Shown in pieces: positions 9,362 through 53,287 of a DNA stretch of 64,000 nucleotides. This stretch comes from Eledone cirrhosa. Taxonomy: Eukaryota. Within the stretch, counting starts at the first letter, position 1. Each line of letters opens with the position of its first letter. A program made the position numbers and the translations under genes. The notes under the pieces were generated by a model. That model ran no database searches. It saw only the letters and a list, made by a program, of their open reading frames with translations, and was not told the DNA's origin. Location of the stretch: NCBI GenBank assembly GCA_964016885.1, contig OZ024751.1, positions 14,880,001 through 14,944,000 of the forward strand, written 5' to 3'.

Positions 9362-9424
9362 CTCTTCTGATGAAGGATTAGTGTCCGAAACGTTGACTTT
9401 TCCTACTACAGGAAGCGTTAAACT
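9362..9424 (+). ncRNA. Degenerate hammerhead-like motif in a TA-terminated insert (~9230-9480)
   Basis: CTGATGA-A-GGA TTAGTG TCC-GAAACGTT; stem I pairing is poor. Confidence 0.5.
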
Positions 9425-9994: not shown

Positions 9995-10217
9995 TAACGG
10001 AGGAAATGTGGTAAGGAACCAGGTGGACCATAACGCACCAAAGTACTCAATACTTAGGGTAGTAGAGTGGGTAATAGGAACGAGTAGGACCCCGACGGCT
10101 GAGCTCAAGCCGTTTCGACGGCTAATTCTGGACGGAATTAGCCGTCCAGAATTAGCCGTCCAAAATTAGCCGTCGAAACGGCTTGAGCTCAGCCGTCGGG
10201 GTCCTACTCGTTCCTAT
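9995..10217 (-). mobile_element. Fold-back element family F, copy 1 (3' half-hammerhead plus tail)
   Basis: ~60-bp inverted arms containing GAAACGGC..GCCGTC, with a 3x AATTAGCCGTC stutter at the apex; flanked by (TA)n. Confidence 0.85.
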
Positions 10218-13579: not shown

Positions 13580-14141
13580 TACAACCTGTCTCATGGTCGG
13601 GTCGTTGGCGACTAAACTGGCAACCCCACCAAGATTTCTTGGTGAGGAGGGTGACTTTGGACATCCTGCAGGACTAAAAACAAAACCTGTCAATGGGCAA
13701 AGGAGCTCATAAGAGCCAATGGCCATCCAAAATCACCGGCAGAGATGACCCCTTAGCCTTTGTCAAGGCAGAATTCTAGAAGGAAAACTCTGATATAACA
13801 CCTGCAACCTTGATGGTATCCAATGATGTTGACTTGTTCTTTTTGGTAAATATCATCTTGGTTAGGAGAGTGGGACTGGCTTTGTGCAGTGCCTTTGCTC
13901 ACTATAAAAGCTTCACGGCACAGGCATTGCTTTATATCTGGAGATCTCTCTGCACTTGTTGTTACATGGTACCATGGGCCCAGCACTGTGTCAATGATTG
14001 TCACAGGTGTAGTGTTTGTACCAGAGTTTTCAAGTCGCTGGCTGGACTAAAAAGTCACACTCGCTCAGCGTATCGGTAGGGGTTCTCCTACATGGATATA
14101 AAGTAGTGGCCGTACTCGAAAACGAGTTGGCAGCCACCATA
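13580..14141 (+). mobile_element. Internally deleted RTE-like non-LTR element (5' UTR plus 3' end)
   Basis: RTE-type 5' motif AGAAGGAAAACTCTGATATAACACC; 3' frame encodes C2H2-like CSVCTRVFKSLAGLKSHTR; terminal hairpin CTCG AAAA CGAG, then (TA)n. Confidence 0.65.
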
Positions 14142-14444: not shown

Positions 14445-14635
14445 AAAACGAAGGAGTTGTGGTAAGGAACCAGATGGACCATAACGCACCAGAGTACTCA
14501 ATACTTAGGGTAGTAGAGTAGGTAATAGTAAAATGTATGACCCCGACGGCAGAGCTCAAGCCGTTTCGACGGCTATTTCTGAAATAGCCGTCGAAACGGC
14601 TTGAGCTCTGCCGTCGAGGTGATACATTTTCCTAT
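14445..14635 (-). mobile_element. Fold-back family F, copy 2
   Basis: Same tail as copy 1; apex GACGGCTATTTC-T-GAAATAGCCGTC. Confidence 0.85.
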
Positions 14636-14640
14636 ATATA

Positions 14641-14990
14641 TTTAAAAGTTAAACAAGGTTCAATGAATACATCAAAGAATGAGTTTTACAATAGATTGGA
14701 AGCACTCAACAGAGAGTTTTCCAGAGTTATTAATATTAATTCAAAATATTAACAAAATAGATATTCTTGTGATCAAGTACTGAGTTAAGTTCAACAGTAG
14801 TTAAGATTCAGGCATGACTACCATGACTGAATCTTAACCATCTACTATGTCAGGGTAGGTATGTCATGCATCATCTTATTTTATCTGATGAGGACGTACT
14901 GTTGAACTTAACTCAGTACCTCTGAAATATGTATAATAAAATATACTTGATCACAAGAATATCTATTTTGTTAATATTTTGAATTAATAT
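14641..14990. mobile_element. PLE-like insert: antisense tail plus inverted hammerhead segment
   Basis: 14733-14779 is the reverse complement of 14944-14990; 14777-14799 is the reverse complement of 14897-14919. Confidence 0.75.
14877..14943 (+). ncRNA. Type I hammerhead motif with palindromic stem III
   Basis: TATTTTAT-CTGATGA-GGA C GTACTG..CAGTAC C TCT-GAAA-TATGTA-TA-ATAAAATA; 8-bp stem I. Confidence 0.85.
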
Positions 14991-15735: not shown

Positions 15736-16045
15736 AATGTTTTATTTAAATTGTTGGGATACAACAAGAAAATATTTTTATAACTGATATAAAGCACTCG
15801 ACAAATATTTGGAGTAGATATACGATATAAACAAATGGAAACTATATTTACAAAACTATCCTGATGTCTTCCAAAAGTAACGGTTGCTTTTTGAAAGGGT
15901 ACGTCAATGTTTATTTATAAAATTGGTATATATTGTATTTTGTCTGATGAAGGCATACCATAATTTAACATGGTATCCTTGAAATATGTATAATGAAATA
16001 AATATGGTTTTATAAATATAGTTTCCATTTGTTAATATCGTATAT
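15733..16045. mobile_element. PLE-like insert: antisense tail plus inverted hammerhead segment
   Basis: 15820-15857 is inverted at 16007-16043; tail 15743-15806 recurs at 1051-1114. Confidence 0.75.
15936..16000 (+). ncRNA. Type I hammerhead motif with palindromic stem III
   Basis: TATTTTGT-CTGATGA-AGG C ATACCAT..ATGGTAT C CTT-GAAA-TATGTA-TA-ATGAAATA. Confidence 0.85.
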
Positions 16046-16049
16046 ATAT

Positions 16050-16402: not shown

Positions 16403-16845
16403 TATATATATACACGTACGATATGATGGATAGTCCTGGCTTCTATTTCTAATTCTTTATTATATATATCATATTTGCAACAACACAGCTCGCCATTTTT
16501 CATTCATATATGCTTTCCCCTTGCTGTGACCTGTCTTTTTCTCTTCCCTTACTGCTATCCTCTTTCTCTCTTCCCCTTCTCTCTCTTACTTTCACTCACC
16601 CACTCTGCTAGTCACCCTCTCTCAGCTAGCCACTTCCTCACACTTTCACCCACTCACTCTCTGCTACTCACCCTCTCTCTCACTCACTCCATCGTCCCAC
16701 ACCTTACGAAATTCTTCCCTCGTTCACATCCGCACGGCCAAGATGTGTCTTTGCCTTCTCGTCAATATTCGCAACTTCTTATGTTCAAATGAATCATTGA
16801 CTTGATTTTCTCATTTTTTCCTCTCTTTACGTTGCCTCACCTTTC

Positions 16846-17490
16846 GTGTGTATATATCAGTGTATATATCAATTTGTATATATCAGTGTGTATATATCGG
16901 TGTATAGATCAGTGTATATATCAGTGTGTATATATCAGTGTGTATATATCAGTGTATATAACAGTGTGTATATATCACTGTGTATATATCACTGTGTATA
17001 TATCAGTGTATATATCAGTGTGTATATATCAGTGCGTGTATATCAGTATGTATATATCAGTGTGTATATATCAGAGTGGGTGTATATATCAGTGTGTGTA
17101 TATCAGTGTGTATATATCAGTGTATATATATCAGTGTGCATATATCAGTGTGTATATATCAGTGTGTATATATCAGTGTGTATATATCAGTGTGTGTATA
17201 TCAGTGTGTATATATCAGTGTGTATATATCAGTGTGTGTATATCAGTGTGTGTATATCAGTGTGTGTATATCAGTATGTATATATCAGTGTGTATATATC
17301 AGAGTGGGTGTATATATCAGTGTGTATATATCAGTGTGTGTATATCAGTGTGTGTATATCGGTGTATATATCAGTGTGTATATATCAGTGTGTATATATC
17401 AGTATGTATATATCAGTGCGTATATATCAGTGTGTATATATCAGTGTATATATCAGTGTGTGTATATCAGTGTGTATATATCAGTGTGTG
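16846..17490. repeat. ~12-16 bp minisatellite TATATCAG(TG)n
   Basis: Direct tandem repeat. Confidence 0.95.
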
Positions 17491-23400: not shown

Positions 23401-26400
23401 CAGTGTGTGTGTCTCTACCTATATCAGTCTGTGTGTGTCTCTACCTATATCAGTGTATGTGTCTCTACCTATATCAGTGTGTGTCTCTACCTATATCAGT
23501 GTGTGTGTCTCTACCTATATCAGTGTGTGTATGTGTCTCTACCTATATCAGTGTGTGTCTCTACCTATATCAGTGTGTGTGTGTTTCTACCTATATCAGT
23601 GTGTGTGTCTCTACCTATATCAGTGTGTGTGTGTCTCTACTTATATTAGTGTGTGTGTCTCTACCTATATCAGTGTATGTGTCTCTACCTATATCAGTGT
23701 GTGTCTCTACCTATATCAGTGTGTCTGTGTCTCTACTTATATTAGTGTGTGTGTCTCTACCTATATCAGTGTGTGTCTCTACCTATATCAGTGTGTCTGT
23801 GTCTCTACCTATATCAGTGTGTGTGTCTCTACCTATATCAGTGTGTGTCTCTACCTATATCAGTGTGTGTGTCTCTACCTATATCAGTGTGTGTGTGTCT
23901 CTACCTATATCAGTGTGTGTCTCTACCTATATCAGTGTGTGTATGTCTCTACCTATATCAGTGTATGTGTCTCTACCTATATCAGTGTGTGTGTCTCTAC
24001 CTATATCAGTGTGTGTCTCTACCTATATCAGTGTGTGTGTCTCTACCTATATCAGTGTGTGTGTGTCTCTACCTATATCAGTGTGTGTCTCTACCTATAT
24101 CAGTGTGTGTGTCTCTACCTATATCAGTGTGTGTGTGTCTCTACCTATATCAGTGTGTGTGTCTCTACCTATATCAGTGTGTGTATGTGTCTCTACCTAT
24201 ATCAGTGTGTGTCTCTACCTATATCAGTGTGTGTGTGTTTCTACCTATATCAGTGTGTGTGTCTCTACCTATATCAGTGTGTGTGTCTCTACCTATATCA
24301 GTGTGTGTGTCTCTACCTATATCAGTGTGTGTGTCTCTACCTATATCAGTGTGTGTCTCTACCTATATCAGTGTGTGTGTCTCTACCTATATCAGTGTGT
24401 GTGTCTCTACCTATATCAGTCTGTGTGTGTCTCTACCTATATCAGTGTATGTGTCTCTACCTATATCAGTGTGTGTCTCTACCTATATCAGTGTGTGTAT
24501 GTGTCTCTACCTATATCAGTGTGTGTCTCTACCTATATCAGTGTGTGTGTGTTTCTACCTATATCAGTGTGTGTGTCTCTACCTATATCAGTGTGTGTGT
24601 GTCTCTACTTATATTAGTGTGTGTGTCTCTACCTATATCAGTGTATGTGTCTCTACCTATATCAGTGTGTGTCTCTACCTATATCAGTGTGTCTGTGTCT
24701 CTACTTATATTAGTGTGTGTGTCTCTACCTATATCAGTGTATGTGTCTCTACCTATATCAGTGTGTGTCTCTACCTATATCAGTGTGTATGTGTCTCTAC
24801 CTATATCAGTGTGTGTGTCTCTACCTATATCAGTGTGTGTCTCTACCTATATCAGTGTGTGTGTCTCTACCTATATCAGTGTGTGTGTGTCTCTACCTAT
24901 ATCAGTGTGTGTCTCTACCTATATCAGTGTGTGTATGTCTCTACCTATATCAGTGTATGTGTCTCTACCTATATCAGTGTGTGTGTCTCTACCTATATCA
25001 GTGTGTGTGTGTCTCTACCTATATCAGTGTGTGTGTCTCTACCTATATCAGTGTGTGTGTGTCTCTACCTATATCAGTGTGTGTCTCTACCTATATCAGT
25101 GTGTGTGTCTCTACCTATATCAGTGTGTGTCTCTACCTATATCAGTGTGTGTGTCTCTACCTATATCAGTGTGTGTATGTGTCTCTACCTATATCAGTGT
25201 GTGTCTCTACCTATATCAGTGTGTGTGTGTTTCTACCTATATCAGTGTGTGTGTCTCTACCTATATCAGTGTGTGTGTCTCTACCTATATCAGTGTGTGT
25301 GTCTCTACCTATATCAGTGTGTGTGTCTCTACCTATATCAGTGTGTGTGTCTCTACCTATATCAGTGTGTGTCTCTACCTATATCAGTGTGTGTGTCTCT
25401 ACCTATATCAGTGTGTGTGTCTCTACCTATATCAGTCTGTGTGTGTCTCTACCTATATCAGTGTATGTGTCTCTACCTATATCAGTGTGTGTCTCTACCT
25501 ATATCAGTCTGTGTGTCTCTACCTATATCAGTGTGTGTATGTGTCTCTACCTATATCAGTGTGTGTCTCTACCTATATCAGTGTGTGTGTGTTTCTACCT
25601 ATATCAGTGTGTGTGTCTCTACCTATATCAGTGTGTGTGTGTGTCTCTACCTATATCAGTGTGTGTGTCTCTACCTATATCAGTGTGTGTGTGTCTCTAC
25701 CTATATCAGTGTGTGTGTGTCTCTACCTATATCAGTGTGTGTCTCTACCTATATCAGTGTGTGTCTCTACCTATATCAGTGTGTGTGTGTCTCTACCTAT
25801 ATCAGTGTGTGTGTGTCTCTACCTATATCAGTGTGTGTGTGTGTCTCTACCTATATCAGTGTATGTGTCTCTACCTATATCAGTGTGTGTGTGTCTCTAC
25901 CTATATCAGTGTGTGTGTGTCTCTACCTATATCAGTGTGTGTGTCTCTACCTATATCAGTATGTGTGTGTCTCTACCTATATCAGTGTGTGTGTGTCTCT
26001 ACCTATATCAGTGTGTGTGTGTCTCTACTTATATTAGTGTGTGTGTCTCTACCTATATCAGTGTGTGTGTGTCTCAACCTATATCAGTGTGTCTGTGTCT
26101 CTACTTATATCAGTGTGTCTGTGTCTCTACCTATATCAGTGTGTGTGTGTCTCTACCTATATCAGTGTGTGTGTCTCTACTTATATTAGTGTGTCTGTGT
26201 CTCTACCTATATCAGTGTGTGTGTGTCTCTACCTATATCAGTGTGTGTGTCTCTACTTATATTAGTGTGTCTGTGTCTCTACCTATATCAGTGTGTGTGT
26301 ATGTCTCTACCTATATCAGTGTGTCTGTATGTCTCAACCTATATCAGTGTGTGTGTGTCTCTACTTATATTAGTGTTTCTGTATGTCTCTACCTATATTA

Positions 26401-29465: not shown

Positions 29466-29718
29466 TATGATATCGGTGTATGACACTTAAATATGATATC
29501 AGTGTATGGTAATGGGTGTATGACACTTAAATATGATATCAGTGTATGGTAATGGGTGTATGACACTTAAATATGATATCAGTGTATGGTAATGGGTGTA
29601 TGACACTTAAATATGATATCAGTGTATGGTAATGGGTGTATGACACTTAAATATGATATCAGTGTATGGTAATGGGTGTATGACACTTAAATATGATATC
29701 AGTGTATGGTAATGGGTG
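29466..29718. repeat. 40-bp tandem repeat, ~6 copies
   Basis: TATGACACTTAAATATGATATCAGTGTATGGTAATGGGTG. Confidence 0.95.
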
Positions 29719-32700
29719 TGTGGTATCTGGGCATGGTAATGGGTGTATGGTATCTGGATATGGTAATGGGTGTATGGTATCTGGGTATGGTAATGGGTGT
29801 ATGGTATCTAGGTATGGTAATGGGTGTATGGTATCTGGGTATGGTAATGGGTGTATGGTATCTGGGTATGGTAATGGGTGTGTCGTATCTGGGTATGGTA
29901 ATGGGTGTGTGGTATCTGGATATGGTAATGGGTGTATGGTATCTGGGTATGGTAATGGGTGTATGGTATCTGGGTATGGTAATGGGTGTATGGTATCTGG
30001 GTATGGTAATGGGTGTGTGGTATCTGGGTATGGTAATGGGTGTGTGGTATCTGGGTATGGTAATGGGTGTGTGGTATCTGGGTATGGTAATTGGTGTATG
30101 GTATCTGGGTATGGTAATGGGTGTATGGTATCTAGGTATGGTAATGGGTGTATGGTATCTGGGTATGGTAATGGGTGTATGGTATCTAGGTATGGTAATG
30201 GGTGTATGGTATCTGGGTATGGTAATGGGTGTGTGGTATCTGGGCATGGTAATGGGTGTATGGTATCTGGGTATGGTAATGGGTGTATGGTATCTAGGTA
30301 TGGTAATGGGTGTATGATATCTGGGTATGGTAATGGGTGTGTGGTATCTGGGTATGGTAATGGGTGTGTGGTATCTGGGTATGGTAATGGGTGTATGGTA
30401 TCTAGGTATGGTAATGGGTGTATGGTATCTGGGTATGGTAATGGGTGTATGGTATCTGGGTATGGTAATGGGTGTATGGTATCTGGGTATGGTAATGGGT
30501 GTGTGGTATCTGGGTATGGTAATGGGTGTATGGTATCTGGGCATGGTAATGGGTGTATGGTATCTGGGTATGGTAATGGGTGTATGGTATCTAGCTATGG
30601 TAATGGGTGTATGGTATCTGGGTATGGTAATGGGTGTGTGATATCTGGGTATGGTAATGGGTGTATGGTATCTGGGTATGGTAATGGGTGTATGGTATCT
30701 AGGTATGGTAATGGGTGTATGGTATCTGGGTATGGTAATGGGTGTATGGTATCTGGGTATGGTAATGGGTGTATGGTATCTGGGTATGGTAATGGGTTAT
30801 GGTATCTGGGTATGGTAATGGGTGTGTGGTATCTGGGTATGGTAATGGGTGTATGGTATCTGGGTATGGTAATGGGTGTATGGTATCTAGCTATGGTAAT
30901 GGGTGTATGGTATCTGGGTATGGTAATGGGTGTGTGGTATGTGGGTATGGTAATGGGTGTGTGGTATCTGGGTATGGTAATGGCTGTATGGTATCTGGGT
31001 ATGGTAATGGGTGTATGGTATCTAGGTATGGTAATGGGTGTATGGTATCTGGGTATGGTAATGGGTGTATGGTATCTGGGTATGGTAATGGGTGTATGGT
31101 ATCTGGGTATGGTAATGGGTTATGGTATCTGGGTATGGTAATGGGTGTGTGGTATCTGGGTATGGTAATGGGTGTATGGTATCTGGGTATGGTAATGGGT
31201 GTATGGTATCTGGGTATGGTAATGGGTGTGTGGTATCTGGGTATGGTAATGGGTGTGTGGTATCTGGGTATGGTAATGGGTGTATGGTATCTGGGTATGG
31301 TAATGGGTGTATGGTATCTGGGCATGGTAATGGGTGTATGGTATCTGGGTATGGTAATGGGTGTATGGTATCTGGGCATGGTAATGGGTGTATGGTATCT
31401 GGGTATGGTAATGGGTGTATGGTATCTGGGTATGGTAATGGGTGTATGGTATCTGGGTATGGTAATGGGTGTATGGTATCTGGGTATGGTAATGGGTGTA
31501 TGGTATCTGGGTATGGTAATGGGTGTATGGTATCTGGGTATGGTAATGGGTGTATGGTATCTGGGTATGGTAATGGGTGTATGGTATCTGGGTATGGTAT
31601 CTAGGTATGGTAATGGGTGTGTGGTATCTGGGTATGGTAATGGGTGTATGGTATCTGGGTATGGTATCTAGGTATGGTAATGGGTGTATGGTATCTGGGT
31701 ATGGTAATGGGTGTATGGTATCTGGGTATGGTATCTAGGTATGGTAATGGGTGTGTGGTATCTGGGTATGGTAATGGGTGTATGGTATCTGGGTATGGTA
31801 TCTAGGTATGGTAATGGGTGTATGGTATCTGGGTATGGTAATGGGTGTGTGGTATCTGGGTATGGTAATGGGTGTGTGGTATCTGGGTATGGTAATGGGT
31901 GTGTGGTATCTGGGTATGGTAATGGGTGTATGGTATCTGGGTATGGTAATGGGTGTATGGTATCTGGGTATGGTAATGGGTGTATGGTATCTGGGTATGG
32001 TAATGGGTGTATGGTATCTGGGTATGGTAATGTGTGTATGGTATCTGGGTATGGTAATGGGTGTATGGTATCTGGGTATGGTAATGGGTGTATGGTATCT
32101 GGGTATGGTAATGGGTGTATGGTATCTGGGTATGGTATCTAGGTATGGTAATGGGTGTATGGTATCTGGGTATGGTAATGGGTGTATGGTATCTGGGTAT
32201 GGTATCTAGGTATGGTAATGGGTGTATGGTATCTGGGTATGGTAATGGGTGTGTGGTATCTGGGTATGGTAATGGGTGTATGGTATCTGGGTATGGTAAT
32301 GGGTGTGTGGTATCTGGGTATGGTAATGGGTGTATGGTATCTGGGTATGGTATCTAGGTATGGTAATGGGTGTATGGTATCAGGGTATGGTAATGGGTGT
32401 GTGGTATCTGGGTATGGTAATGGGTGTGTGGTATCTGGGTATGGTAATGGGTGTGTGGTATCTGGGTATGGTAATGGGTGTATGGTATCTGGGTATGGTA
32501 ATGGGTGTGTGGTATCTGGGTATGGTAATGGGTGTGTGGTATCTGGGCATGGTAATGGGTGTATGGTATCTGGGTATGGTAATGGGTGTATGGTATCTGG
32601 GTATGGTAATGGGTGTATGGTATCTGGGTATGGTAATGGATGTATGGTATCTGGGTATGGTAATGGGTGTATGGTATCTGGGTATGGTAATGGGTGTGTG

Positions 32701-34990
32701 GTATCTGGGTATGGTAATGGGTGTGTGGTATCTGGGTATGGTAATGGGTGTATGGTATCTGGGTATGGTAATGGATGTATGGTATCTGGGTATGGTAATG
32801 GGTGTATGGTATCTGGGTATGGTAATGGGTGTGTGGTATCTGGGTATGGTAATGGGTGTGTGGTATCTGGGTATGGTAATGGGTGTATGGTATCTAGGTA
32901 TGGTAATGGGTGTATGGTATCTGGGTATGGTAATGGGTGTATGGTATCTGGGTATGGTAATGGGTGTATGGTATCTGGGTATGGTAATGGGTGTATGGTA
33001 TCTAGGTATGGTAATGGGTGTGTGGTATCTGGGTATGGTAATGGGTGTATGGTATCTGGGTATGGTAATGGGTGTATGGTATCTAGGTATGGTAATGGGT
33101 GTATGGTATCTGGGTATGGTAATGGGTGTATGGTATCTGAGTATGGTAATGGGTGTGTGGTATCTGGGTATGGTAATGGGTGTATGGTATCTGAGTATGG
33201 TAATGGGTGTGTGGTATCTGAGTATGGTAATGGGTGTGTGGTATCTAGGTATGGTAATGGGTGTGTGGTATCTGGGTATGGTAATGGGTGTATGGTATCT
33301 GGGTATGGTAATGGGTGTATGGTATCTGGGTATGGTAATGGGTGTATGGTATCTGAGTATGGTAATGGGTGTGTGGTATCTGGGTATGGTAATGGGTGTA
33401 TCGTATCTGGGTATGGTAATGGGTGTATGGTATCTGGGTATGGTAATGGGTGTATGGTATCTGGGTATGGTAATGGGTGTATGGTATCTGGGTATGGTAA
33501 TGGGTGTATGGTATCTGGGTATGGTAATGGGTGTATGTTATCTGGGTATGGTAATGGGTGTGTGGTATCTGAGTATGGTAATGGGTGTGTGGTATCTAGG
33601 TATGGTAATGGGTGTATGGTATCTGGGTATGGTAATGGGTGTATGGTATCTGGGTATGGTAATGGGTGTATGGTATCTGAGTATGGTAATGGGTGTGTGG
33701 TATCTAGGTATGGTAATGGGTGTATGGTATCTGGGTATGGTAATGGGTGTGTGATATCTGGGTATGGTAATGGGTGTATGGTATCTGGGTATGGTAATGG
33801 GTGTATGATATCTGGGTATGGTAATGGGTGTATGGTATCTGGGTATGGTAATGGGTGTGTGGTATCTGGGTATGGTAATGGGTGTATGGTATCTGGGTAT
33901 GGTAATGGGTGTATGGTATCTGGGTATGGTAATGGGTGTATGGTATCTGGGTATGGTAATGGGTGTATGGTATCTGGGTATGGTAATGGGTGTGTGGTAT
34001 CTGGGTATGGTAATGGGTGTATGGTATCTGGGTATGGTAATGGGTGTATGGTAATGGGTGTATGGTATCTGGGTATGGTAATGGGTGTATGTTATCTGGG
34101 TATGGTAATGGGTGTGTGGTATCTGGGTATGGTAATGGGTGTGTGGTATCTGGGTATGGTAATGGGTGTGTGGTATCTGGGTATGGTAATGGGTGTGTGG
34201 TATCTGGGTATGGTAATGGGTGTGTGGTATCTGGGTAGGGTAATGGGTGTGTGGTATCTGGGTATGGTAATGGGTGTATGGTATCTGGGTATGGTAATGG
34301 GTGTATGGTATCTGGGTATGGTAATGGGTGTATGGTATCTGGGTATGGTAATGGGTGTGTGGTATCTGGGTATGGTAATGGGTGTGTGGTACCTGGGTAT
34401 GGTAATGGGTGTGTGGTATCTGGGTATGGTAATGGGTGTGTGGTATCTGGGTATGGTAATGGGTGTATGGTATCTGGGTATGGTAATGGGTGTGTGGTAT
34501 CTAGGTATGGTAATGGGTGTGTGGTATCTGGGCATGGTAATGGGTGTATGGTATCTGGGTATAGTAATGGGTGTATAGTAATGGGTGTATGGTAATGGGT
34601 GTGTGGTATCTGGGTATGGTAATGGGTGTGTGGTATCTGGGTATGGTAATGGGTGTGTGGTATCTGGGTATGGTAATGGGCGTGTGGTATCTGGGTAGGG
34701 TAATGGGTGTGTGGTATCTGGGTATGGTAATGGGTGTATGGTATCTGGGTATGGTAATGGGTGTATGGTATCTGGGTATGGTAATGGGTGTGTGGTATCT
34801 AGGTATGGTAATGGGTGTGTGGTATCTGGGCATGGTAATGGGTGTATGGTATCTGGGTATAGTAATGGGTGTATAGTAATGGGTGTATGGTAATGGGTGT
34901 ATGGTATCTGGGTATGGTAATGGGTGTATGGTATCTGGGTATGGTAATGGGTGTATAGTAATGGGTGTATAGTAATGGGTGTATGGTATT
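29704..34990. repeat. ~5.3 kb 27-bp G/T-rich satellite
   Basis: GTATGGTATCTGG+GTATGGTAATGGGT (13+14 bp dimer), ~195 copies. Confidence 0.98.
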
Positions 34991-35312
34991 ACTGTATAAT
35001 GTGTTGTAATATTGTGAGAGCCAGAAGATAGCCGAAGTATAAAAAGATATCAATAGTGAAAGGGAAGAGTGTGAGAGATAGCAGGGTGGGGAGGGGGGGG
35101 GTGAAAGAATTAAAGAAGAAGCAAGTGTGAACGGAGAGCTGGGTGAGGATGGGTGAGTGGGAGAGAGAGGGGATAAGAGGGGGAGAAAGGGAGAAAGGAA
35201 GAAAGACGGATAGAGAAAGAGAGAGAGAGGAGGGTAAGAGAGAGAGAGAGAAAGAGAGAGGATAAGAGAGAGAGAGAAAGAGAAAGAGAGAGAGAGAGAG
35301 AGAGTAAGAGAG

Positions 35313-35366
<54 letters not shown>

Positions 35367-35579
35367 AAGCAGTGAAATAGATATCAAAATGGTGTGGAAA
35401 AGGGAACATTTAACATATGTTTGTGTATCTATTTAAATGATGTGTGTCTATTTAATACACACACACAAACACACAGGCAAACACACACACAGAGACAGAC
35501 AGACAGAGGCAAGCATACACACATACGTATGCTGAGAGAAAGACGGGGAGCGTGTATATGGTGGCTATGTACGTGTATG

Positions 35580-39030: not shown

Positions 39031-39487
39031 ACTCCCTGTTACAATAGAAGCCATTCGTCTAAGATGACGCACAATAGGATTTAACCCAAAACCACGCAGT
39101 AGCGAAGCGAACTCCTACGATGTTAGCTTTTTTTGTACGGTGTTAGTTTAATATACATTCAGCCATTTACTGTTTACAGGCTTTAGAACACGGCCATGCT
39201 GGGGCATATCAATATATTATTATTTGCGACGTTAGGTTGTTGATGTTATTTTTATGATGTTTTGTTATGCATGGTATTTTTTTGTTTATTTATCTATTTA
39301 ATTATTTATATGTTCATGTCATGTTGCTGTTGTTGAATTATTTATTACAGAGAATCTTTACGAAAATAGTAACATCATCTTAGCCAGCTGTGACAACAGT
39401 TATTTCTCTCTCTCTCTCTACGTGCACACACACACACCATATGTTTATGCGTGTGTGTCTATATATATATATATATATATTTAAATA

Positions 39488-39683
39488 TAACGAAGGAGGT
39501 GTGGTAAGGAACCAGATGGACCATAGCGCACCAGAGTACTCAATACTTAGGATAGTAGAGTGGGTAATAGGAAAATGTTTGACCCCGACGGCAGAGCTCA
39601 AGCCGTTTCGGCGGCTATTTCTGGTTCAGAAATAGCCATCGAAACGGCTTGAGCTCTGCCGTCGGGGTCAAACATTTTCCTAT
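39488..39683 (-). mobile_element. Fold-back family F, copy 3
   Basis: Apex GGCTATTTCTG-GTT-CAGAAATAGCC; TA flanks. Confidence 0.85.
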
Positions 39684-39940: not shown

Positions 39941-40249
39941 ATATATATATATGTAATTAAGGAAGGGGATACCACAATGAAACAATGTACAGGTTTCTCA
40001 CAAAACAACCTCCTCATCTGAGACACCCTGCTGGGTGTCAGCATGTTGTAGCTTCAGCTAAAGTTAATACACTATTAAAGTTTCTTTCCACATGCTAACA
40101 ACATTCCGTTTTATCAGTTATACTTATTATTGAGGGCAAAGAAATTGACAGGATTGCTAGAGTCGCTGACGAAATCTATAGAGGGATTTACATTGCGTCT
40201 GTGAGTTTCTGAGTTCAAATCCCACCAGAAAGTCTGTCTTAAGCCATTT

Positions 40250-40432
40250 AAGTACAAGACTTGACCCTGGACAGGACGCCAGTCCATCACAGAGTTAAAC
40301 TCCCAGCTATGGAGCTCACTGGAGCAATGTGAAACGAAGTGTTTTGCTCTACAACACAACACGCAACCCAGCCCAGGAATCAGACCAACGACATTATGAT
40401 CGTAAGTCCAACACCATTACCACTAGGCTATG
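40250..40432 (-). mobile_element. SINE family B inserted in a SINE A-like head
   Basis: Reverse complement matches 41100-41290 (GCCTAGTGGTAA..GACT..GATCATAATGTCG..ATGGACT.GCGTCCTGTCCAG). Confidence 0.75.
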
Positions 40433-40434
40433 CG

Positions 40435-41097: not shown

Positions 41098-41382
41098 TGG
41101 AGGCGCGTGGCCTAGTGGTAAGGGCGTTGGATTTAGGATCATAATGTCGTAGGTTCGATTCCTAGACTGGGTTGTGTGTTGTGTTTTTGAGCAAAAACAC
41201 TTCATATCAAGTTGCTCCAGTGTACTCAGTTGAAAATGAGTGCCGACAATAGCTGGGTGTTTAACTCTGCTATGGACTAGCGTCCTGTCCAGTGGGGGAA
41301 GGGAGTCTTGTACTCTCAGTCGCTTAACGCCATGGAAACCGGGATAAACACCAACCTGATGAACCTCCAGGCTTTAGACACC
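41098..41382 (+). mobile_element. tRNA-derived SINE family B, near full length
   Basis: GGAGGCGCGTGGCCTAGTGG A box and GGTTCGATTCC B box; CATATATAAA on both flanks (41086, 41382) is a candidate TSD. Confidence 0.85.
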
Positions 41383-41789
41383 ATATATAAAGTCTGCGAA
41401 AAAATGTTTTTCTTAATATAAAGAATGCTGTGGTCATGCGCAGATATACTATAAAATGGTCATGCGCAGACATACTTAAAATGGCTTATAAATAGGGCAA
41501 AGATTCTTAAAGACGGGAAAAGAAGTTGCCATTGGCCGCTATGAGTTGATAAATACAATTAATTTGAATAAAATGGTGCCCTTCTTTCCTTGAAGCTCTA
41601 ATCCTGTGTTTATTGTGTTAATGGTTAACATGACTTACCCAGCTCTGGTTCACTATCATCCTATATTTCTACCCACACTCAAACTTCTTATACCCACACT
41701 CACGTTTCTTGTACCCAGACTCACATTATTCTGCTAAACGATACTCATCCTACATTTCTAACCACATTACCTACACTCAACGCTACACC

Positions 41790-43410
41790 ATTGGCCCCAC
41801 TCACCTCACACCATTACCTACACTCACCTCTACACCATAGCCCACACTCACCTCACATCATTAGCTACACTCACCTCATACCACTACCCACACTAACACC
41901 ATTACCCACACTCACCTCACACCAATACCAACGCCACCACCACTACCACACCATTACCAACGCCACCACAACCGCCAACGCCAGCACAACTACGACACTA
42001 CCACCACTACCACACCATTACCAACGCCACCACTACCCACACCATTACCAACGCCACCACTACCACCAACGCCACCACCACTACCACACCAATACCAACG
42101 CCACTACTACCACCACTACCACACCAATACCACACCAATACCAACGCCACTACTACCACCAACGCCACCACCACTACCACACCAACACCAACGCCACTAC
42201 TACCACCAATACCAACGCCACTACTACCACCACTACCACACCAATACCAACGCCACTACTACCACCAACGCCACCACCACTACCACACCAATACCAACGC
42301 CACTACTACCACCAACGCCACCACCACTACCACACCAATACCAACGCCACTACTACCACCACTACCACACCAATACCAACGCCACTACTACCACCACTAC
42401 CACACCAATACCAACGCCACCACCACTACCACACCAATACCAACGCCACTACTACCACCACTACCACACCAATACCAACGCCACTACTACCACCAACGCC
42501 ACCACCACTACCACACCAATACCAACGCCACTACTACCACCACTACCACACCAATACCAACGCCACTACTACCACCAACGCCACCACCACTACCACACCA
42601 ATACCAACGCCACTACTACCACCACTACCACACCAATACCAACGCCACTACTACCACCAACGCCACCACCACTACCACACCAATACCAACGCCACTACTA
42701 CCACCACTACCACACCAATACCACACCAATACCAACGCCACTACTACCACCAACGCCACCACCACTACCACACCAACACCAACGCCACTACTACCACCAA
42801 TACCAACGCCACTACTACCACCACTACCACACCAATACCAACGCCACTACTACCACCAACGCCACCACCACTACCACACCAATACCAACGCCACTACTAC
42901 CACCAACGCCACCACCACTACCACACCAATACCAACGCCACTACTACCACCACTACCACACCAATACCAACGCCACTACTACCACCACTACCACACCAAT
43001 ACCAACGCCACCACCACTACCACACCAATACCAACGCCACTACTACCACCACTACCACACCAATACCAACGCCACTACTACCACCAACGCCACCACCACT
43101 ACCACACCAATACCAACGCCACTACTACCACCACTACCACACCAATACCAACGCCACTACTACCACCAACGCCACCACCACTACCACACCAATACCAACG
43201 CCACTACTACCACCACTACCACACCAATACCAACGCCACTACTACCACCAACGCCACCACCACTACCACACCAATACCAACGCCACTACTACCACCACTA
43301 CCACACCAACACCAACGCCACTACTACCACCAACGCCACCACCACTACCACACCAACACCAACGCCACTACCGCCACCACTACCAACACCAAGAACAACA
43401 ACACCACAAC
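41790..43410. repeat. C/A-rich trinucleotide-derived satellite with ~590-bp higher-order duplication
   Basis: CACACCAATACCAACGCCACTACTAC modules; marker ACACCAATACCACACCAATACC at 42121 and 42712. Confidence 0.9.
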
Positions 43411-43650
43411 ATGGAGCCCAGCCACCAAACTATTGCCCGAGTCAACGAGTGTGCCCTCTACACGACACGCTAGAAATAACAGCCAGATTCCCTTGAATCA
43501 CCTTTCAGTCACTATCGTCTTGAATATAAAGATAACAGATAATAGAGACCTTAGATAACCGCCCCCGGTCTATGAACGGTCAACGTTGAAATAGATTTGA
43601 TCATAGATCTGTGATCGATCGGGCTTGACCAGGCGCGATCTAACCAACAA
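43410..43650 (+). mobile_element. Interspersed repeat related to 2340-2565; its AAC tail runs into an expanded tract
   Basis: Shared sequence blocks and AAC tail. Confidence 0.55.
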
Positions 43651-43718
43651 CAACAACAACAGCGACAGCAACAACAACAACAACAACAACAACAACAGCG
43701 ACAACAACAACAACAGCG

Positions 43719-43770
<52 letters not shown>

Positions 43771-44833
43771 CGATAACGCCAACAACAACAACAGCAGCAA
43801 CAACGATAACGCCAACAACAACAACAACAGCAGCAACAACGATAACACCAACAACAACAACAGCAGCAACAACGATAACGCCAACAACAACAACAACAAC
43901 AGCAGCAACAACGATAACACCAACAACAACAACAACAACAGCAGCAACAACGATAATACCAACAACAACAACAACAACAGCAGCGACAACGATAACGCCA
44001 ACAACAACAACAACAACAACAACAGCAGCAACAACGATAACGCCAACAACAACAACAACAGCAGCAACAACGATAACGCCAACAACGATAACGCCAACAA
44101 CAACAACTACGACTATAATGATAACACCAATAACAATAATAACAACAACAAAGACAACCCCAATAATAACAGCGATAACATCAATAACAACAACAACAAC
44201 AACACCAATTACAACAACAATGACGATAACGATAACGCCAATAAGAACAACAACGCCAACAACAACACCACCACCACCAACAACACCAATAACACCACCA
44301 CTACCACCACCAACACATCACCACGATCACCACACCACCACCACCACCAACAACACACCACCACCACCACCAACACCAACATACCACCACACCAACACCA
44401 CACCACCACCACACCAACACACCACCACCACCACCACCACCACACCAACACACCACCACCACCACCACACACCACCACCACCACCAACAACACACCACCA
44501 CCAACATACCACCACACCAACACACCACCACCACCAACATACCACCACACCAACACACCACCACCACACCAACACACCACCACCACCAACACACCACCAA
44601 CACACCACCACCAACACACCACCACCAACATACCACCACACCAACACACCACCACCACCACCACACCAACACACCACCACACCACCACCACCAACACACC
44701 ACCACCACCACACCAACACACCACCACCACCACCAACACACCACCACGACCACACCAACACACCACCACGACCACCACACCAACACACCACCACCACCAC
44801 CACCGCCGCCGCACCACCACACCACCACCACCC
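43645..44833. repeat. (AAC)n grading into (CAC)n low complexity
   Basis: Direct. Confidence 0.95.
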
Positions 44834-45114
44834 TAAATCAATGCTATTATCGCCATATCTATCATGGACAGCTGTCATATCTCTATAAACTATTACTGTC
44901 CTAATTAATGGCCGACTATCTGATTATTGTCTTCGATTAAGTATTCATTATGTCCGCTATTTAGAAGACGATCGATAAAGGCGATAAACAGATAAATCGA
45001 TAGCTGCAAGTGTCACTTCTTGTTCTGCAGCGAACTCTGCATTACACGTGACTACCATGTGACTGATTCGGCACTGCTGATGTGACATGTGACCGAGTGG
45101 ATCACCTCCGTCGT

Positions 45115-46290
45115 CATTATCAACACCACCACCATTACCACAACCACCAACACCACCACCACCATTACCACCAACACCACCACCACCATTACCACCAACA
45201 CCACCATTACCACCACCACCATTATCAACACCGCCAACACCACCACCACCATTACCACAACCACCAACACCACCACCACCATTACCACAACCACCAACAC
45301 CACCACCACCATTATCAACACCGCCAACACCACCACCACCATTACAACAACCACCAACACCACCACCACCATTATCAGCACCGCCAACACCAACACCACC
45401 ATTATCATCACCGCCAACACCACCACCACCATTACCACAACCACCAACACCACCACCACCATTACAACAACCACCAACGCCACCACCACCATCATCAACA
45501 CTGCCAACACCACCACCACCATTACAACAACCACCAACACCACCACCACCATTATCAGCACCGCCAACACCAACACCACCATTATCATCACCGCCAACAC
45601 CACCACCACCATTACCACAACCACCAACACCACCACCACCATTACAACAACCACCAACGCCACCACCACCATCATCAACACCGCCAACACCAACACCACC
45701 ATTAACAATACCGCCAACACCACCACCACCATTACCACAACCACCACTACTACTACTACCACCACCACCAACACCGCAGCCACGAACACCACCACTACTA
45801 CCACTACCAACACAACCACTACAATCACCACCACCAACACCACCACTACCATTAACACTACCACCAACGCAAATACTACCAACACTTCCACCATTACCAC
45901 CACCACCACCACCTCTACAACCATCACCATCACCACCACCACTACAAACACCAACAACAACTCTCTCCCCACTACCACCACCACCACCTCCACCGCCACT
46001 AACACCACCAACACTACTACCTCCACCGCCACTAACACCACCAACACTACTACCTCCACCGCCACTAACACCACCAACACTACTACCTCCACCGCCACTA
46101 ACGCTACCAACACTACTACCACCACTACTATCACCATCACCACCACTACCACCACCGTCACTACCCCACTACCACCACCGCCACTACCACCACTACCACT
46201 ACCACCAACACCACTACAACCACCACCACCACCAACACCACTACAACCACCACCACCACCACCAACACCACAACAACAACAACAATGAAG
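45115..46290. repeat. 30-bp (CAC/AAC/ATT) minisatellite and trinucleotide tract
   Basis: CACCACCACCATTACCACAACCACCAACAC; 180-bp higher-order repeat (45331-45510 vs 45511-45690). Confidence 0.9.
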
Positions 46291-46857
46291 ACGAAAACGA
46301 AGACGAGGCAACAAAAACTCACGAGGTTTACAAACAGGAAGCAATTAAGTTGGCTTTTCTCTACAAGTTGCTTTATTCTCCGAAATAATTAATTAGTTCA
46401 ATAAATGATTATTCACACACATAAACAAACAGACAGACACACATGCACAGTCTCACACACAGACAGACACACACACACACACAGACACACACACACACAG
46501 ACACACACACAGACACACGCACACACATATTAGCTTCAAATCATTTTTGTATTTATTTATGACTGAGAGGATTGAAGAAATTTTAACACAATCACACATA
46601 CACACACACACATACATACATACATAAATACATACGCACATACATACACACGCATACATATACACATACATAAACACATACATACATACACATATATATA
46701 TATACACATAAACATACACACAGAATGTAGTGCAGCGAATGGGCTGAGTCGTTAGGACGTCAGATAGAAGGCTTTGCCGTATTCATTCCAACTGTCGCAA
46801 CTATCTAAGTTCAAACACCGCCGAAGTCAACATTGTCTTTCATCCTTAGATAGACAT

Positions 46858-47302: not shown

Positions 47303-47712
47303 TGCGGGGTAACAAATAATAGTTATATGCAGTCCACTTAGGTGTAGTCCAATTATGGTATTCCGGGTAGTGGATGATATCAACGCTTGGCTAAGTTTGA
47401 CCCAACAAGGCGTTTTCATAGTGATGCTGCGAGTACGCTGTAATTCCTATGTTGTAAGCACTTGGAGTAATAATAAATCAGGAAAGAAGATAGAATATAG
47501 TAGCCTGTATATTCCTTTCATGCCTGTATATTCTCTTCATTCTCGCAAGCTCCGATGAACTGACTGGTTATAATTTTGTATTGGCGATCGAGTAACGCGA
47601 AAACAAGCGGATAGCGATCTCTAGACCTACCAGTTCAGAGAAACAATTGTCAGCAATGAGATTAAAAACCTGTTTTGTATAGCAAACCGTGTCAATCTTC
47701 TTTCCTGATTTA
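47303..47712. mobile_element. PLE-like insert: antisense tail plus inverted hammerhead segment
   Basis: TAAATCAGGAAAGAAGAT (47474) is the reverse complement of 47695-47712; TA flanks. Confidence 0.65.
47541..47661 (+). ncRNA. Hammerhead motif, CCGATGA variant with long loop II
   Basis: TCTC gcaa GCT-CCGATGA-A CTGA CTGGT..ACCAG t TCAG A-GAAA-CAATTG-TC-AGC aat GAGA; GUC site. Confidence 0.75.
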
Positions 47713-47796
47713 TATATATATATATATATATATATAAATCAGGAAAGATTGACACGGTTTGCTATACAAAACATATATATATATATATATATATAT

Positions 47797-48311
47797 GTAG
47801 ATAAATCTACCAAAAGTTTACGGTTGTGTCCAATCCGTATGAAGAACTCAATGTAATCCGGATATCATGAAAAGAGAAGATGCATTCAAAAACTACTTTC
47901 GGTGAAAAATAAACGGAAAACAGAGTCAAGATAAATTAATAAAATTAATAAAATAATGAATAAACAAAGAAACAGTTCCTTATATTAAAAAAAATTCATC
48001 ATTTTACGATCGTTTCTAGGATATATATGTGTTAGAATTGGTATGCATATTCTATAGATCTATGTACAATATTTATACAAACTATCAGAGGGAATATACA
48101 TACCTACACATATATATGCTGTCTTCAGAAACAGCATATATATGTGTAGGAATGTATATTCCCTCTGATAGTTTGTATAAATATTGTACATAGATCTATA
48201 GAATATGCATACCAACTCTAACACATATATATCCTAGAAACGATCGTAAAATGATGAATTTTTTTTAATATAAGGAACTGTTTCTTTGTTTATTCATTAT
48301 TTTATTAATTT
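47797..48311 (-). mobile_element. PLE-like fold-back insert with ~180-bp arms
   Basis: 47942-48122 is a near-perfect inverted copy of 48131-48311; unpaired tail 47797-47940 abuts (TA)n. Confidence 0.85.
48002..48131 (-). ncRNA. Hammerhead motif with extended stem II
   Basis: TTT-CTGAAGA-CAG C ATATATATGTGT..ACACATATATAT C CTA-GAAA-CGATCG-TA-AAA. Confidence 0.75.
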
Positions 48312-48358
48312 ATATATATATAAATCAGGAAAGAAGATTGACATGGTTTGCTATATAA

Positions 48359-48451
<93 letters not shown>

Positions 48452-48535: not shown

Positions 48536-49153
48536 TATTGTATTGTTTATTATACATTATATATATATATATATATAAATATATATAATCGTTAAAACAG
48601 AAAACAAAAACAAAGCAAAGAGTGCAATACAAAGTGTTAGTATTAGGCTCACGCTTTTCCCCGTAGGGGCGTCCAATAGGCCGGAAAATACGGTATATCT
48701 TAACTGCGTCCAGAACATATCTTTTTACCCCGTTTGTAAAATAAATTAGATTACTTTGAATAAACAATGAATAAATATTACATAATTTATGTACTAAATT
48801 TCGTAACTCTTGATTAAATATATTTTATTGCTTATTTAAAGATTCACTTCTTTAAAATTTTCAAATGTCAACACTTCCGATTATATAATAACACTTATAA
48901 AAACATCGCATATATTTCCATCGCTAATTTTCCCCTAATGCAGTTTATATATAATATCGTCTTTTTTAAATGAATCATAGATTACTTTGCAGAAGTGAGT
49001 GTAACATAGACTTCGTTCAATTTCTGTGTATATTGTCAATTACGATTTTATTTGATGTATCATATCTACATGCATATATATTTGCGTATAATATCAATAT
49101 ACACACTACACATGCTAGAGGAAAACCACACGAAGGGTGGGTTTTCTGCTAGT

Positions 49154-49356
49154 TGTTATTAATAATTTAGTATTAAAAATATATATATATATTGCCACGA
49201 AAAAAGCCATTAAAAAAATCGCGGAAGATATTTAAGATTCTGCGAATATGAGGTGGTTTCTACGAACAATTATTAGTTAGGGTCTAAGGAAAATTCCGCG
49301 AATAACCGGAACCACAAATGCGGTGGGTGGGGTGGGGGTGGGGGCGTTTACACTGT
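49154..49356 (-). mobile_element. pogo/Tigger-like MITE end, inverted copy of 49575-49745
   Basis: ~160 bp diverged inverted match; ends CACTG-TA. Confidence 0.6.
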
Positions 49357-49574
49357 ATATATTATTAGGTATGAATCGACGTTGTAGCCGCCATATAGCA
49401 GGTACTAATCTAGTTGTTTGAGGCACTCAATGAAGCGAGAAGCTAATCATTAAATCCAGAGTAAAACAACAGTTATAAAGTGTGACACCAAGAAAAATGA
49501 CCAAAGACAGCGACCACAATTACACTACAACAAAGATAAACACAAAAGGGTTGAAGACTAACCCGTGACATATA

Positions 49575-49986
49575 CAGTATATCATTCGCGGTCCCGGTTA
49601 TTCGCAGAATTCTCCCTAGAACCTAACTAATAATTGTTCGTGGAAACCATGGCATTATTCGCGGAATCGTAAATATCATCCGCGATTTTTTATGGATTTT
49701 TTCGTGGCAATATGTATTTTTTTTAATGCTAAATTATCAATAACAATACATCGCATTTGCCGGCCTATTGGACGCCTCTTCGCATAAGATTTTACGTTAT
49801 ATTTTGACGTTTATAGGCATTTTTATTTACGTTATATTTTACGTTATATTTTGACGTTTATAGGCATTTTTATTTACGTTATATTTTACGTTATATTTTG
49901 ACGTTTATAGGCATTTTTATGGACCACGTCCCATATTCGCGGGTCCTCTAGGAACGTTAACCCCCGCGAATACCGGGGGACAACTG
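49575..49986 (+). mobile_element. pogo/Tigger-like MITE with an internal 3x ~47-bp repeat
   Basis: Starts TA-CAGT, has TATTCGCG subterminal motifs, ends CCCCGCGAATACCGGGGGACAACTG. Confidence 0.6.
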
Positions 49987-51867: not shown

Positions 51868-51870
<3 letters not shown>

Positions 51871-52059
51871 GGAACAAGTAGGACCCCGACGGCTGAGCTC
51901 AAGCCGTTTCGACGGCTAATTCTGGACAGAATTAGCCGTCGAAACGGCTTGAGCTCAGCCGTCGGGGTCCTACTCGTTCCTATTACCCACTCTACTACCC
52001 TAAGTATTGAGTACTTTGGTGCGTTATGGTCCACCTGGTTCCTTACCACATTTCCTTCG

Positions 52060-52062
<3 letters not shown>
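51868..52062 (+). mobile_element. Fold-back family F, copy 4
   Basis: Apex GACGGCTAATTCTG-GA-CAGAATTAGCCGTC; nearly identical to copy 1. Confidence 0.85.
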
Positions 52063-52185: not shown

Positions 52186-52214
<29 letters not shown>

Positions 52215-52221
<7 letters not shown>

Positions 52222-52414
52222 AGATCCAGGACCCCAATGGCTGAGTTGCGGCCGTTTCGACAGCTAGATCCGAACTGTTCGGATCTAGATGTCGAAACGG
52301 CCGGAGCTCAGTCGTCGGGGTGCTGAATCTTTTCATATTACCCACTCTACTACCCTTAGTATTGAGTACTTTGGTGCGTTATGTTCCACCTGGTATCTTA
52401 CCACACCCTCTTTG

Positions 52415-52417
<3 letters not shown>
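52215..52417 (+). mobile_element. Fold-back family F, copy 5 (diverged subfamily)
   Basis: Apex CTAGATCCGAAC-T-GTTCGGATCTAG, then GAAACGGC and the family tail. Confidence 0.85.
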
Positions 52418-52476
<59 letters not shown>

Positions 52477-52722: not shown

Positions 52723-53038
52723 ACATATATATATATATATGTTAATATATATATGTTAAGTATTTCCGAAGAAAAAGCAAAGGAAAAAAGAGTTCTCTAT
52801 GTATAATATAATATAAATATAGATCAGAGCAAACATCACGGACGCTCTATCTCAAAATTATTTTTGAAAAGCATTAGAAATGCGCAACCGGTAAAACTTA
52901 AAACCAAAACTGAATACTAACCAATACAATTACTAATTCTCACTTATTCCTAATTAAACTATTTTTCACTGTGAACAATTTGTCAGCATTTTCTATTCCG
53001 TTTACCAATATATATATGTATATATATATATATATATA

Positions 53039-53244
53039 TAGAAGTGGTTACACAACAGTTAGTTCACCATACCGAGAATAATTGTTTCACCTTAGCGGAT
53101 CCTCATTACGAGCTGAGGATCCGCTAAGGTGAAACAATTGTTCTCGGTATGGTGAACTAACTGTTGTGTAACCACTTCTACCTGACTCGTCCCATGGACT
53201 GAGTGCTCTACCACTACGGATATTACCTTCCAGTGTTCCACCAC

Positions 53245-53250
<6 letters not shown>
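53039..53250 (+). mobile_element. PLE-like fold-back insert, ~67-bp arms
   Basis: 53039-53105 is inverted at 53114-53180, followed by an unpaired tail and (TA)n. Confidence 0.85.
53109..53146 (+). ncRNA. Minimal type I hammerhead motif
   Basis: CGAG-CTGAGGA-T CC GCTAA GG T-GAAA-CAATTG-TT-CTCG. Confidence 0.8.

Positions 53251-53287
<37 letters not shown>

Follow-up and report, generated by a model that had tools for sequence, protein, structure and literature searches.

A 206-base mirror-image repeat with a minimal hammerhead ribozyme motif inside a (TA)n run of Eledone cirrhosa

Introduction

In Penelope-like retroelements (PLEs), an inverted, 5′-truncated copy can lie adjacent to the 5′ end of the element, a tail of 30–40 bp is present at one end, and insertion is biased toward (TA)n (Craig 2021, PMC8557442). 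Such inverted 5′-truncated copies and one-sided tails are described as typical of PLEs (Craig 2021, PMC8557442; Goubert 2022, PMC8969392), and palindromic head-to-head junctions have been interpreted as the outcome of self-priming with an antisense template (Arkhipova 2013, PMC3846280). The pLTRs contain minimal hammerhead ribozymes with a palindromic helix III, variants of which were found by custom descriptors; in the same account the G10.1–C11.1 pair is called highly conserved, and pairs of hammerheads on opposite strands, 100–700 bp apart, are traced to truncated PLEs (Cervera 2014, PMC4209133). A PLE protein has been reported to cut AT-rich DNA on both strands and to copy uncut RNA from two internal start sites that bound the tail (Frangieh 2024, PMC11167929). 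The origin of PLE tails and of the inverted ends is stated as an open question in both Craig 2021 (PMC8557442) and Frangieh 2024 (PMC11167929).

Here we describe an insertion near 53 kb of a 64,000-nucleotide stretch of genomic DNA (the window), which is AT-rich, microsatellite-rich and eukaryotic in character. The layout of this insertion is mostly known from the systems above; the predicted hairpin at the start of its tail is the one testable new detail.

Results and Discussion

Layout of the palindrome

The 53 kb stretch is a head-to-head pair of 5′-cut hammerhead-bearing repeats, one tailed and one tailless, which together form a 206-base mirror-image repeat inside a (TA)n run (Table 1). 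The original prediction of arms of about 67 bp with a single mismatch was borne out: the arms measure 67 bp and differ only at 53079 (T) versus 53140 (G), and the best arm obtained in 200 base shuffles of the element was 13 bp with one mismatch (mean 7.9). The 8-nt loop TTACGAGC contains, as had been claimed, C3 of the ribozyme core and most of the 5′ strand of stem I, and the short left arm does stop at an internal TA, its end CACTTCTA merging into (TA)n. The end of the element, initially placed at 53250, had to be moved to 53244. Counted from C3 as position 0, the tailed copy starts at −7 and the tailless copy at +1, and the loop is closed by a 2-nt CA/TG microhomology, as judged by eye against the native upstream letters in the loose ends of reads. 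Neither a second copy of this family nor a direct repeat of it was found within the window.

Table 1. Positions of the 53 kb insertion and of related elements in the window.
Feature	Position	Strand	Basis
(TA)n target run on the left, interrupted by one GT	53008..53038	.	sequence
Inverted tailless copy (short arm), from core U4 to internal TA	53039..53105	-	
Minimal hammerhead motif (type I) with dimer-type palindromic stem III; cleavage predicted after 53142	53104..53152	+	
8-nt loop TTACGAGC of the tailed copy, with C3 and 7 nt of the stem I 5′ strand	53106..53113	+	
Right arm of palindrome, part of tailed copy, ends at internal TA	53114..53180	+	
Tail of 64 nt, AC-rich at its end, on a single arm	53181..53244	+	
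Predicted tail hairpin ACTC-GTCC-loop-GGAC-bulge-GAGT-GCT, 4 nt past arm end	53185..53207	+	
Right (TA)n target run	53245..53284	.	sequence
48 kb element: tail about 47796–47941, hammerhead with 105-nt stem II region	47796..48311	-	
Sister family, five copies	51868..52062; 52214..52418; 9995..10217; 14447..14635; 39487..39683	+; +; -; -; -	
Asymmetric pair: tailless copy (+) from 85 nt before C3; tailed copy (-) from +11, 27-nt gap	14640..14990		
Asymmetric pair: tailless copy (+) from 84 nt before C3; tailed copy (-) from +60	15745..16048		

The hammerhead motif

The tailed copy shows the core CUGANGA/GAAA/NUH together with helices I and III: CTGAGGA occupies 53113–53119, GAAA 53131–53134, and the cleavage triplet is GUU. 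Stem I is formed by CGAG (53109–53112) and CTCG (53143–53146), so that helix I comprises 4 bp in this copy; the letters CCATTC, which stand upstream in the loose ends of reads, would extend it by eye to nine pairs in ten. Stem III is the self-complementary, 8-nt palindrome ACAATTGT (53134–53141; −6.4 kcal/mol as a duplex). The pair G10.1–C11.1 is absent: T53120 faces T53130 (U·U), and the loop is closed by only two C–G pairs. Because the inverted arm is without C3 and stem I, only one arm holds the whole motif.

A hammerhead descriptor returned five motifs in the window compared to a mean of 0.25 (maximum 2) in 60 block shuffles, and four of these five have a palindromic stem III, for which the shuffles gave a mean of 0.05. 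Rfam yielded no hammerhead match to the 53 kb element, neither at the gathering score nor at E ≤ 10; the matches that did appear at E ≤ 10 were rejected, being microRNA-type models that would fit any long hairpin, each below its gathering score. The free fold of 53105–53160 is no better than that of shuffled sequences (z −0.95), and free folding of a two-copy RNA did not produce the dimer ribozyme shape. Among the best-supported 40 of 156 variant rows from family reads, N7 (53117) is affected, and none of the rows touches 53113–53116, 53118–53119 or 53131–53134. A peak of 5′ ends at the predicted cut (53143) was sought in the reads and is not present among the loose-end rows listed. We class the ribozyme as a hammerhead-like motif, activity unproven. 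Hammerhead-core-like motifs that fail the full descriptor lie at 9367, 41356 (+), 54891 (−) and 50204 (+).

Comparison with the closest described systems

The published descriptions of EN+ PLEs (Penelope/Poseidon, Neptune, Naiad) share with the 53 kb locus the head-to-head inverted copy, the palindromic junction, the tail at one end, the 5′ truncation and the (TA)n target; the locus differs in that it contains no ORF and in its tail of 64 nt, which is longer than the published 30–40. Moreover, Naiads are described as being without canonical hammerheads, whereas the 53 kb element has one. With the minimal type I hammerheads of metazoan PLEs (PMC4209133) the motif has in common the core, a short helix I, a palindromic helix III, high copy number and opposite-strand neighbours, but it departs from them, as they are presented there, in the U·U at 10.1–11.1, the short helix II, the GUU site, the lack, as we read it, of an extra base between 9 and 10.1, and in that only one arm is whole. 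The Anolis Poseidon element PAc, studied in vitro (PMC11167929), corresponds to the locus in having two end points that bound a tail downstream of the hammerhead, an AC-rich tail end, an AT-rich target and an uncut RNA template; its reported start sites, unlike at 53 kb, are located inside the ORF, where they form part of an AC-rich stem-loop. Non-LTR retrozymes (bioRxiv 10.64898/2026.07.22.740005) are likewise ORF-less, carry a type I hammerhead and derive from PLE pLTRs, but their definition there calls for direct units in tandem that carry at least two hammerheads, while the 53 kb element is one inverted pair.

The element combines the features of an ORF-less, PLE-type (pLTR-derived) insertion: a hammerhead motif, a head-to-head inverted 5′-truncated copy, a tail at one end and a microsatellite target. 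An inverted 5′ segment also arises during target-primed reverse transcription in the twin-priming 5′ inversions of L1; these copy different parts of one RNA and are not known to form a palindrome, whereas both arms at 53 kb copy the same part. None of the 88 stop-to-stop frames of at least 70 aa in the window that passed the complexity filter has a Pfam match to a PLE reverse transcriptase (RT) or GIY-YIG domain. Therefore, an autonomous PLE was rejected as the class of the 53 kb element, and the link to PLEs rests on layout and ribozyme. On these grounds we consider a PLE origin of the insertion very probable. A non-LTR retrozyme was rejected as well, since the element is present as a single copy in the window without tandem direct units.

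A long inverted repeat that adjoins TA could also come from a TA-targeting DNA transposon (MITE) or from an assembly or chimera artefact, and the palindrome itself was unseen in placed reads. However, only one end of the element is an inverted-repeat end: the right end is the unique 64-nt tail and there is no second terminal inverted repeat, for which reason the class of MITEs and DNA transposons was rejected. The presence of the hammerhead motif, the one-base difference between the arms, the recurrence of the arm-to-(TA)n junction across sequencing runs and nine further head-to-head pairs in the window also speak against a transposon or artefact, which we regard as highly improbable.

Elsewhere in the window, a repeat near 9.6 kb looks like an octopus SINE, and 40239–40434 and 41104–41327 form an inverted pair of a SINE-like repeat with 74% identity. 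One weak C2H2 zinc-finger match, under the Pfam cut-off, lies at 13780–14076 (+), and strand-skewed tandem and simple-repeat tracts at 16800–26400, 29600–35400 and 41600–46400 give rise to spurious long open frames.

The arm end in sequencing reads

Four of 23 listed sequencing runs were placed on 53106–53244 only (139 bp, comprising the loop, right arm and tail): RAD reads carrying the same species label (X21), contigs X1, and contigs of two other organisms (X5 and X6). The family is abundant, with 11,297 X21 reads and 4,144 X1 contigs, and is represented by 14 and 15 contigs in the two other organisms. Exact-pattern scans detected no copies of it in viral and metagenome contigs and no sister-family copies in metagenome contigs.

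The sequence changes into (TA)n after 53180 in 1,319 of the 11,297 X21 reads, in 67 X1 contigs and in one X5 contig, and into (CT)n after 53179 in 17 X1 contigs. The junction of arm and (TA)n is located at 53180 in three of the four runs and at 53178–53179 in the fourth, and the X21 depth drops from 6,812 to 4,766 at 53180. The arm end at 53180 is a family-wide rule; the reads that pass into (TA)n at this position may stem from inverted arms or from lone tailless copies. Some copies of the family run into (TC)n instead (ends at 53179, 53236, 53238 and 53242), and the tail has at least three end positions. The end point seems to be set by position with local pairing and not by TA alone.

Other head-to-head pairs in the window

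In total, the window contains ten head-to-head pairs in six families. The 48 kb element is a palindrome with arms of 181 bp (47942–48122 and 48131–48311) and an 8-nt loop; its ribozyme is on the minus strand, and its copies start at −2 and +6 relative to C3. The five copies of the sister family are all palindromic and lack the hammerhead 5′ core; what they retain is GAAA, a 6-bp stem III with a GUC site and the 3′ strand of stem I. Their apices are found 12.5, 15, 15.5, 17.5 and 29 nt before GAAA, all in the stem II region, and subfamily-specific letters occur in both arms while the loops vary copy by copy. At the apex of the 10 kb sister copy (10120–10175, minus), a 14-nt piece of the arm occurs three times in tandem; these nested repeats resemble repeated snap-back or slippage.

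Two pairs, at 14.8 and 15.9 kb, have a tailless copy that is longer than the tailed one (Table 1). The related hammerhead elements at 14800 and 15860 start 85 and 84 nt before C3, which is possibly the true RNA 5′ end; the start of the copy at 14800 coincides with the foot of a 12-bp hairpin free of mismatches. In the 47.5 kb pair, a 22-nt inverted piece is joined about 57 nt before the core, and the two arms end at one point with no tail hairpin. A long-stem-II hammerhead family occupies 47473–47775 (core CCGATGA at 47552) and 48323–48363: its stem III palindrome is identical to that at 53 kb, and it shows three short inverted 3′-end pieces, two of them flanked by (TA)n on both sides, and no tail hairpin. 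Loops of 0–8 nt are present in six of the ten head-to-head junctions, and nested repeats occupy the apex of one more. Two further motifs, at 527 and 9367, stand without an inverted partner.

The predicted tail hairpin and its distance to the arm end

The tails of otherwise unrelated families open in the same manner: ACTC is followed by a variable stem of 3–4 bp with its loop, a bulge of 1–2 nt and GAGTRCY. This pattern, written after the tails had been viewed, matches 13 times (11 sites) in the window compared to 1.4 times in 50 shuffles. The inner stem, which is outside the pattern, was evaluated separately at seven sites (one of the five sister copies was included, both doubtful matches were kept, and 41224 has no inner stem): 23 pairs were counted, compared to a shuffle mean of 10.1, and this value was reached by 0 of 20,000 shuffles. 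The inner stems differ in sequence (GTCC/GGAC, TACT/AGTA, TGC/GTA and CAA/TTG). A MAFFT alignment did not register the tail hairpins, so the pairs were counted by script. In the fold of the 48 kb tail, matching hairpin ends enclose a long insert. Within the 53 kb family, hairpin residue C53188 differs in 680 of 2,686 plus-oriented X21 reads.

The tailless arm stops 2–5 nt ahead of ACTC in eight of nine pairs, as read by eye because internal mismatches misled the script counter. The offset is 2 nt at 15.9 kb, 4 nt at 53 kb, and 5 nt both at 14.8 kb and in all five copies of the sister family; at 48 kb it is 4 or 15 nt, according to how a 9-nt duplication is registered. Scoring of arm ends over family copies, which had been suggested as a check on a common mechanism, came out in favor of the original prediction, both through the recurrence of the (TA)n junction at 53180 in reads and through the consistency of the offset across families. 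The predicted tail hairpin, just ahead of which the short arms of the 53 kb element and of four unrelated families stop, is likely to be a signal for the element's enzyme and is a candidate binding or start site. A further tail-type hairpin, for which no hammerhead was found, lies at 49422–49462 (minus) between 49153–49320 and 49583–49746, which are inverted repeats of about 165 bp with 80% identity.

In the literature searched, which covered few subscription papers, neither the tail hairpin nor an apex linked to ribozyme helices was found, and no cross-family ACTC/GAGT hairpin was met in the account of Anolis Poseidon PAc in Frangieh 2024. The shared tail hairpin with its offset and a preference of the apex for ribozyme helices may be new.

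Position of the apex

The 53 kb locus was initially thought to repeat the geometry of the 48 kb palindrome in an unrelated sequence. This applies to the 8-nt loop and to the unrelatedness of the two sequences, but the apices differ by 5 nt and the ribozymes are on opposite strands: relative to C3, the loop spans −2 to +5 at 48 kb and −7 to 0 at 53 kb, and the 48 kb loop keeps only 2–3 nt of the stem I 5′ strand. The strong form of the claim, according to which the apex is set by the ribozyme 5′ strand at 53 kb and in other families, can nevertheless point to two unrelated elements whose apices, both with 8-nt loops at stem I and the core, are no more than 5 nt apart, and to a third, uninverted copy at 527 that is cut about 12 nt before C3. 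However, only two of the six families in the window (two of the ten copies) fold at stem I or the core while the other four join elsewhere, and for a zone of 12 nt out of 150 the post hoc chance of this outcome is about 0.08 if families are counted and 0.19 if copies are.

The reads bear on this claim in two ways. Upstream sequence continues without a fold before 53109 in 1,339 reads (27 contigs) and before 53125 in a further 905 reads (58 contigs); these 2,244 reads fall into two subfamilies. Because longer upstream sequence exists in the reads, the 53 kb copy is 5′-truncated. Among the joints listed, six of seven change strand: 53106/53141, 53106/53149, 53106/53161, 53107/53211, 53109/53126 and 53135/53185. 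The joint of the 53 kb locus itself (53106/53114) is absent among them. One side falls at 53106–53109 in five of these six inverted joints, as the claim would have it, but 53106 is the edge of the reference and the cluster may be an edge effect; the 7,473 X21 reads that cross a reference end were counted together only. The read data are biased against palindromes, which would favor the claim: the RAD library was cut at AATT, a site inside stem III where 1,699 reads end (53136), and symmetric palindromes are collapsed or hidden in Logan contigs. With reads unfolded upstream and joints that vary on one side, the apex did not score as a fixed position over family copies, and we consider it unlikely that the ribozyme 5′ strand sets it. 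In the reading that we favor, the apex is a stop point whose position varies, perhaps with a preference for ribozyme helices; a hot spot at stem I is possible.

Origin of the inverted pair

The proposal that both palindromes share an integration mechanism is supported, and the fixed arm end holds both family-wide and across families; the mechanism, however, is the known one of PLEs, with an inverted 5′-truncated copy, a tail on one arm and a (TA)n target. Following the PLE literature, a reverse transcriptase–GIY-YIG protein encoded elsewhere would bind the RNA near its tail, nick (TA)n or (TC)n DNA and prime cDNA synthesis at the tail end. The cDNA would halt about 9 nt upstream of the core, and its 3′ end would pair with its own sequence via the 2-nt CA/TG microhomology, after which synthesis would run back over the cDNA. 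This second strand would stop 4 nt before the ACTC/GAGT hairpin, owing to a bound protein or to a second start site, and its TA end would pair with the other end of the target. Because cDNA is antisense, its fold-back would give the geometry of the 53 kb locus. Such a route, with cDNA primed at the tail end, folded back near the ribozyme and copied on itself to the foot of the tail hairpin, has in our estimation an even chance of being correct. Ribozyme cleavage is likely not needed for it, since the RNA that was copied was uncut.

Fold-back is favored because the loops at 53 kb and 48 kb are short and belong to the tailed copy; it also agrees with the folding of all five sister copies in the stem II region and with the joint 53106/53149, which matches the register of stem I to one base. 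On the other hand, a 2-nt CA/TG microhomology is a weak primer, and the tailless copies at 14.8 and 15.9 kb are longer than their tailed partners, so that one fold-back of the tailed cDNA could yield these pairs only if a deletion followed; the joints 53107/53211 and 53135/53185 look like them. The pairs with the longer tailless copy, whose 5′ ends at −85 and −84 are 1 nt apart, are better explained by two-strand priming: A PLE dimer would nick both strands and start one cDNA at the tail end and another at the foot of the hairpin, and the two, each halted early, would be joined head to head by microhomology. This is in line with the anole PLE protein, which is reported to cut and extend both strands, is a predicted dimer and uses two starts that bound the tail (Frangieh 2024, PMC11167929), and with the inverted joints, which vary on one side (53126, 53141, 53149, 53161, 53185 and 53211). 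Short loops would result if both polymerases stalled nearly together on one RNA, in which case the 8-nt loops would be their footprint; yet this is an extra assumption that the 0–8 nt loops in six of the ten junctions and the fixed apex of the sister family demand. For the 53 kb locus, we see two-strand priming as a real but lesser possibility, and whether fold-back took place there in its stead is close to a coin toss. Both routes may operate.

The five sister copies are the best case for helix-primed fold-back or for a palindromic master. In the latter event, a master that is already palindromic would be transcribed and re-inserted, so that the apex becomes a family trait; the sister copies would conform to this, as they fold in one region and all lack the 5′ core. 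Against such inheritance stand the many reads of the 53 kb family that are unfolded upstream as well as the sister family itself, which has subfamily letters in both arms and loops that differ per copy, and we hold an inherited palindrome to be very unlikely.

Conclusion

We tentatively propose, as a reading that we would sooner doubt than accept, that an ACTC/GAGT bulged hairpin common to many unrelated PLE families of this animal fixes the end of the tailless arm, while ribozyme helices or their edges serve as self-priming points for the second strand. The cross-family tail hairpin, 2–5 nt from the arm end, is a concrete cis-element open to mutation in the in vitro assay already available for PLEs. 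Short head-to-head insertions are so common in this genome that simply counting them could tell fold-back from two-strand priming. If the proposal is true, the hammerhead influences integration through its structure and not through cutting, which would account for the tails of PLEs, for inverted pLTRs and for the retention of dead-looking hammerheads.
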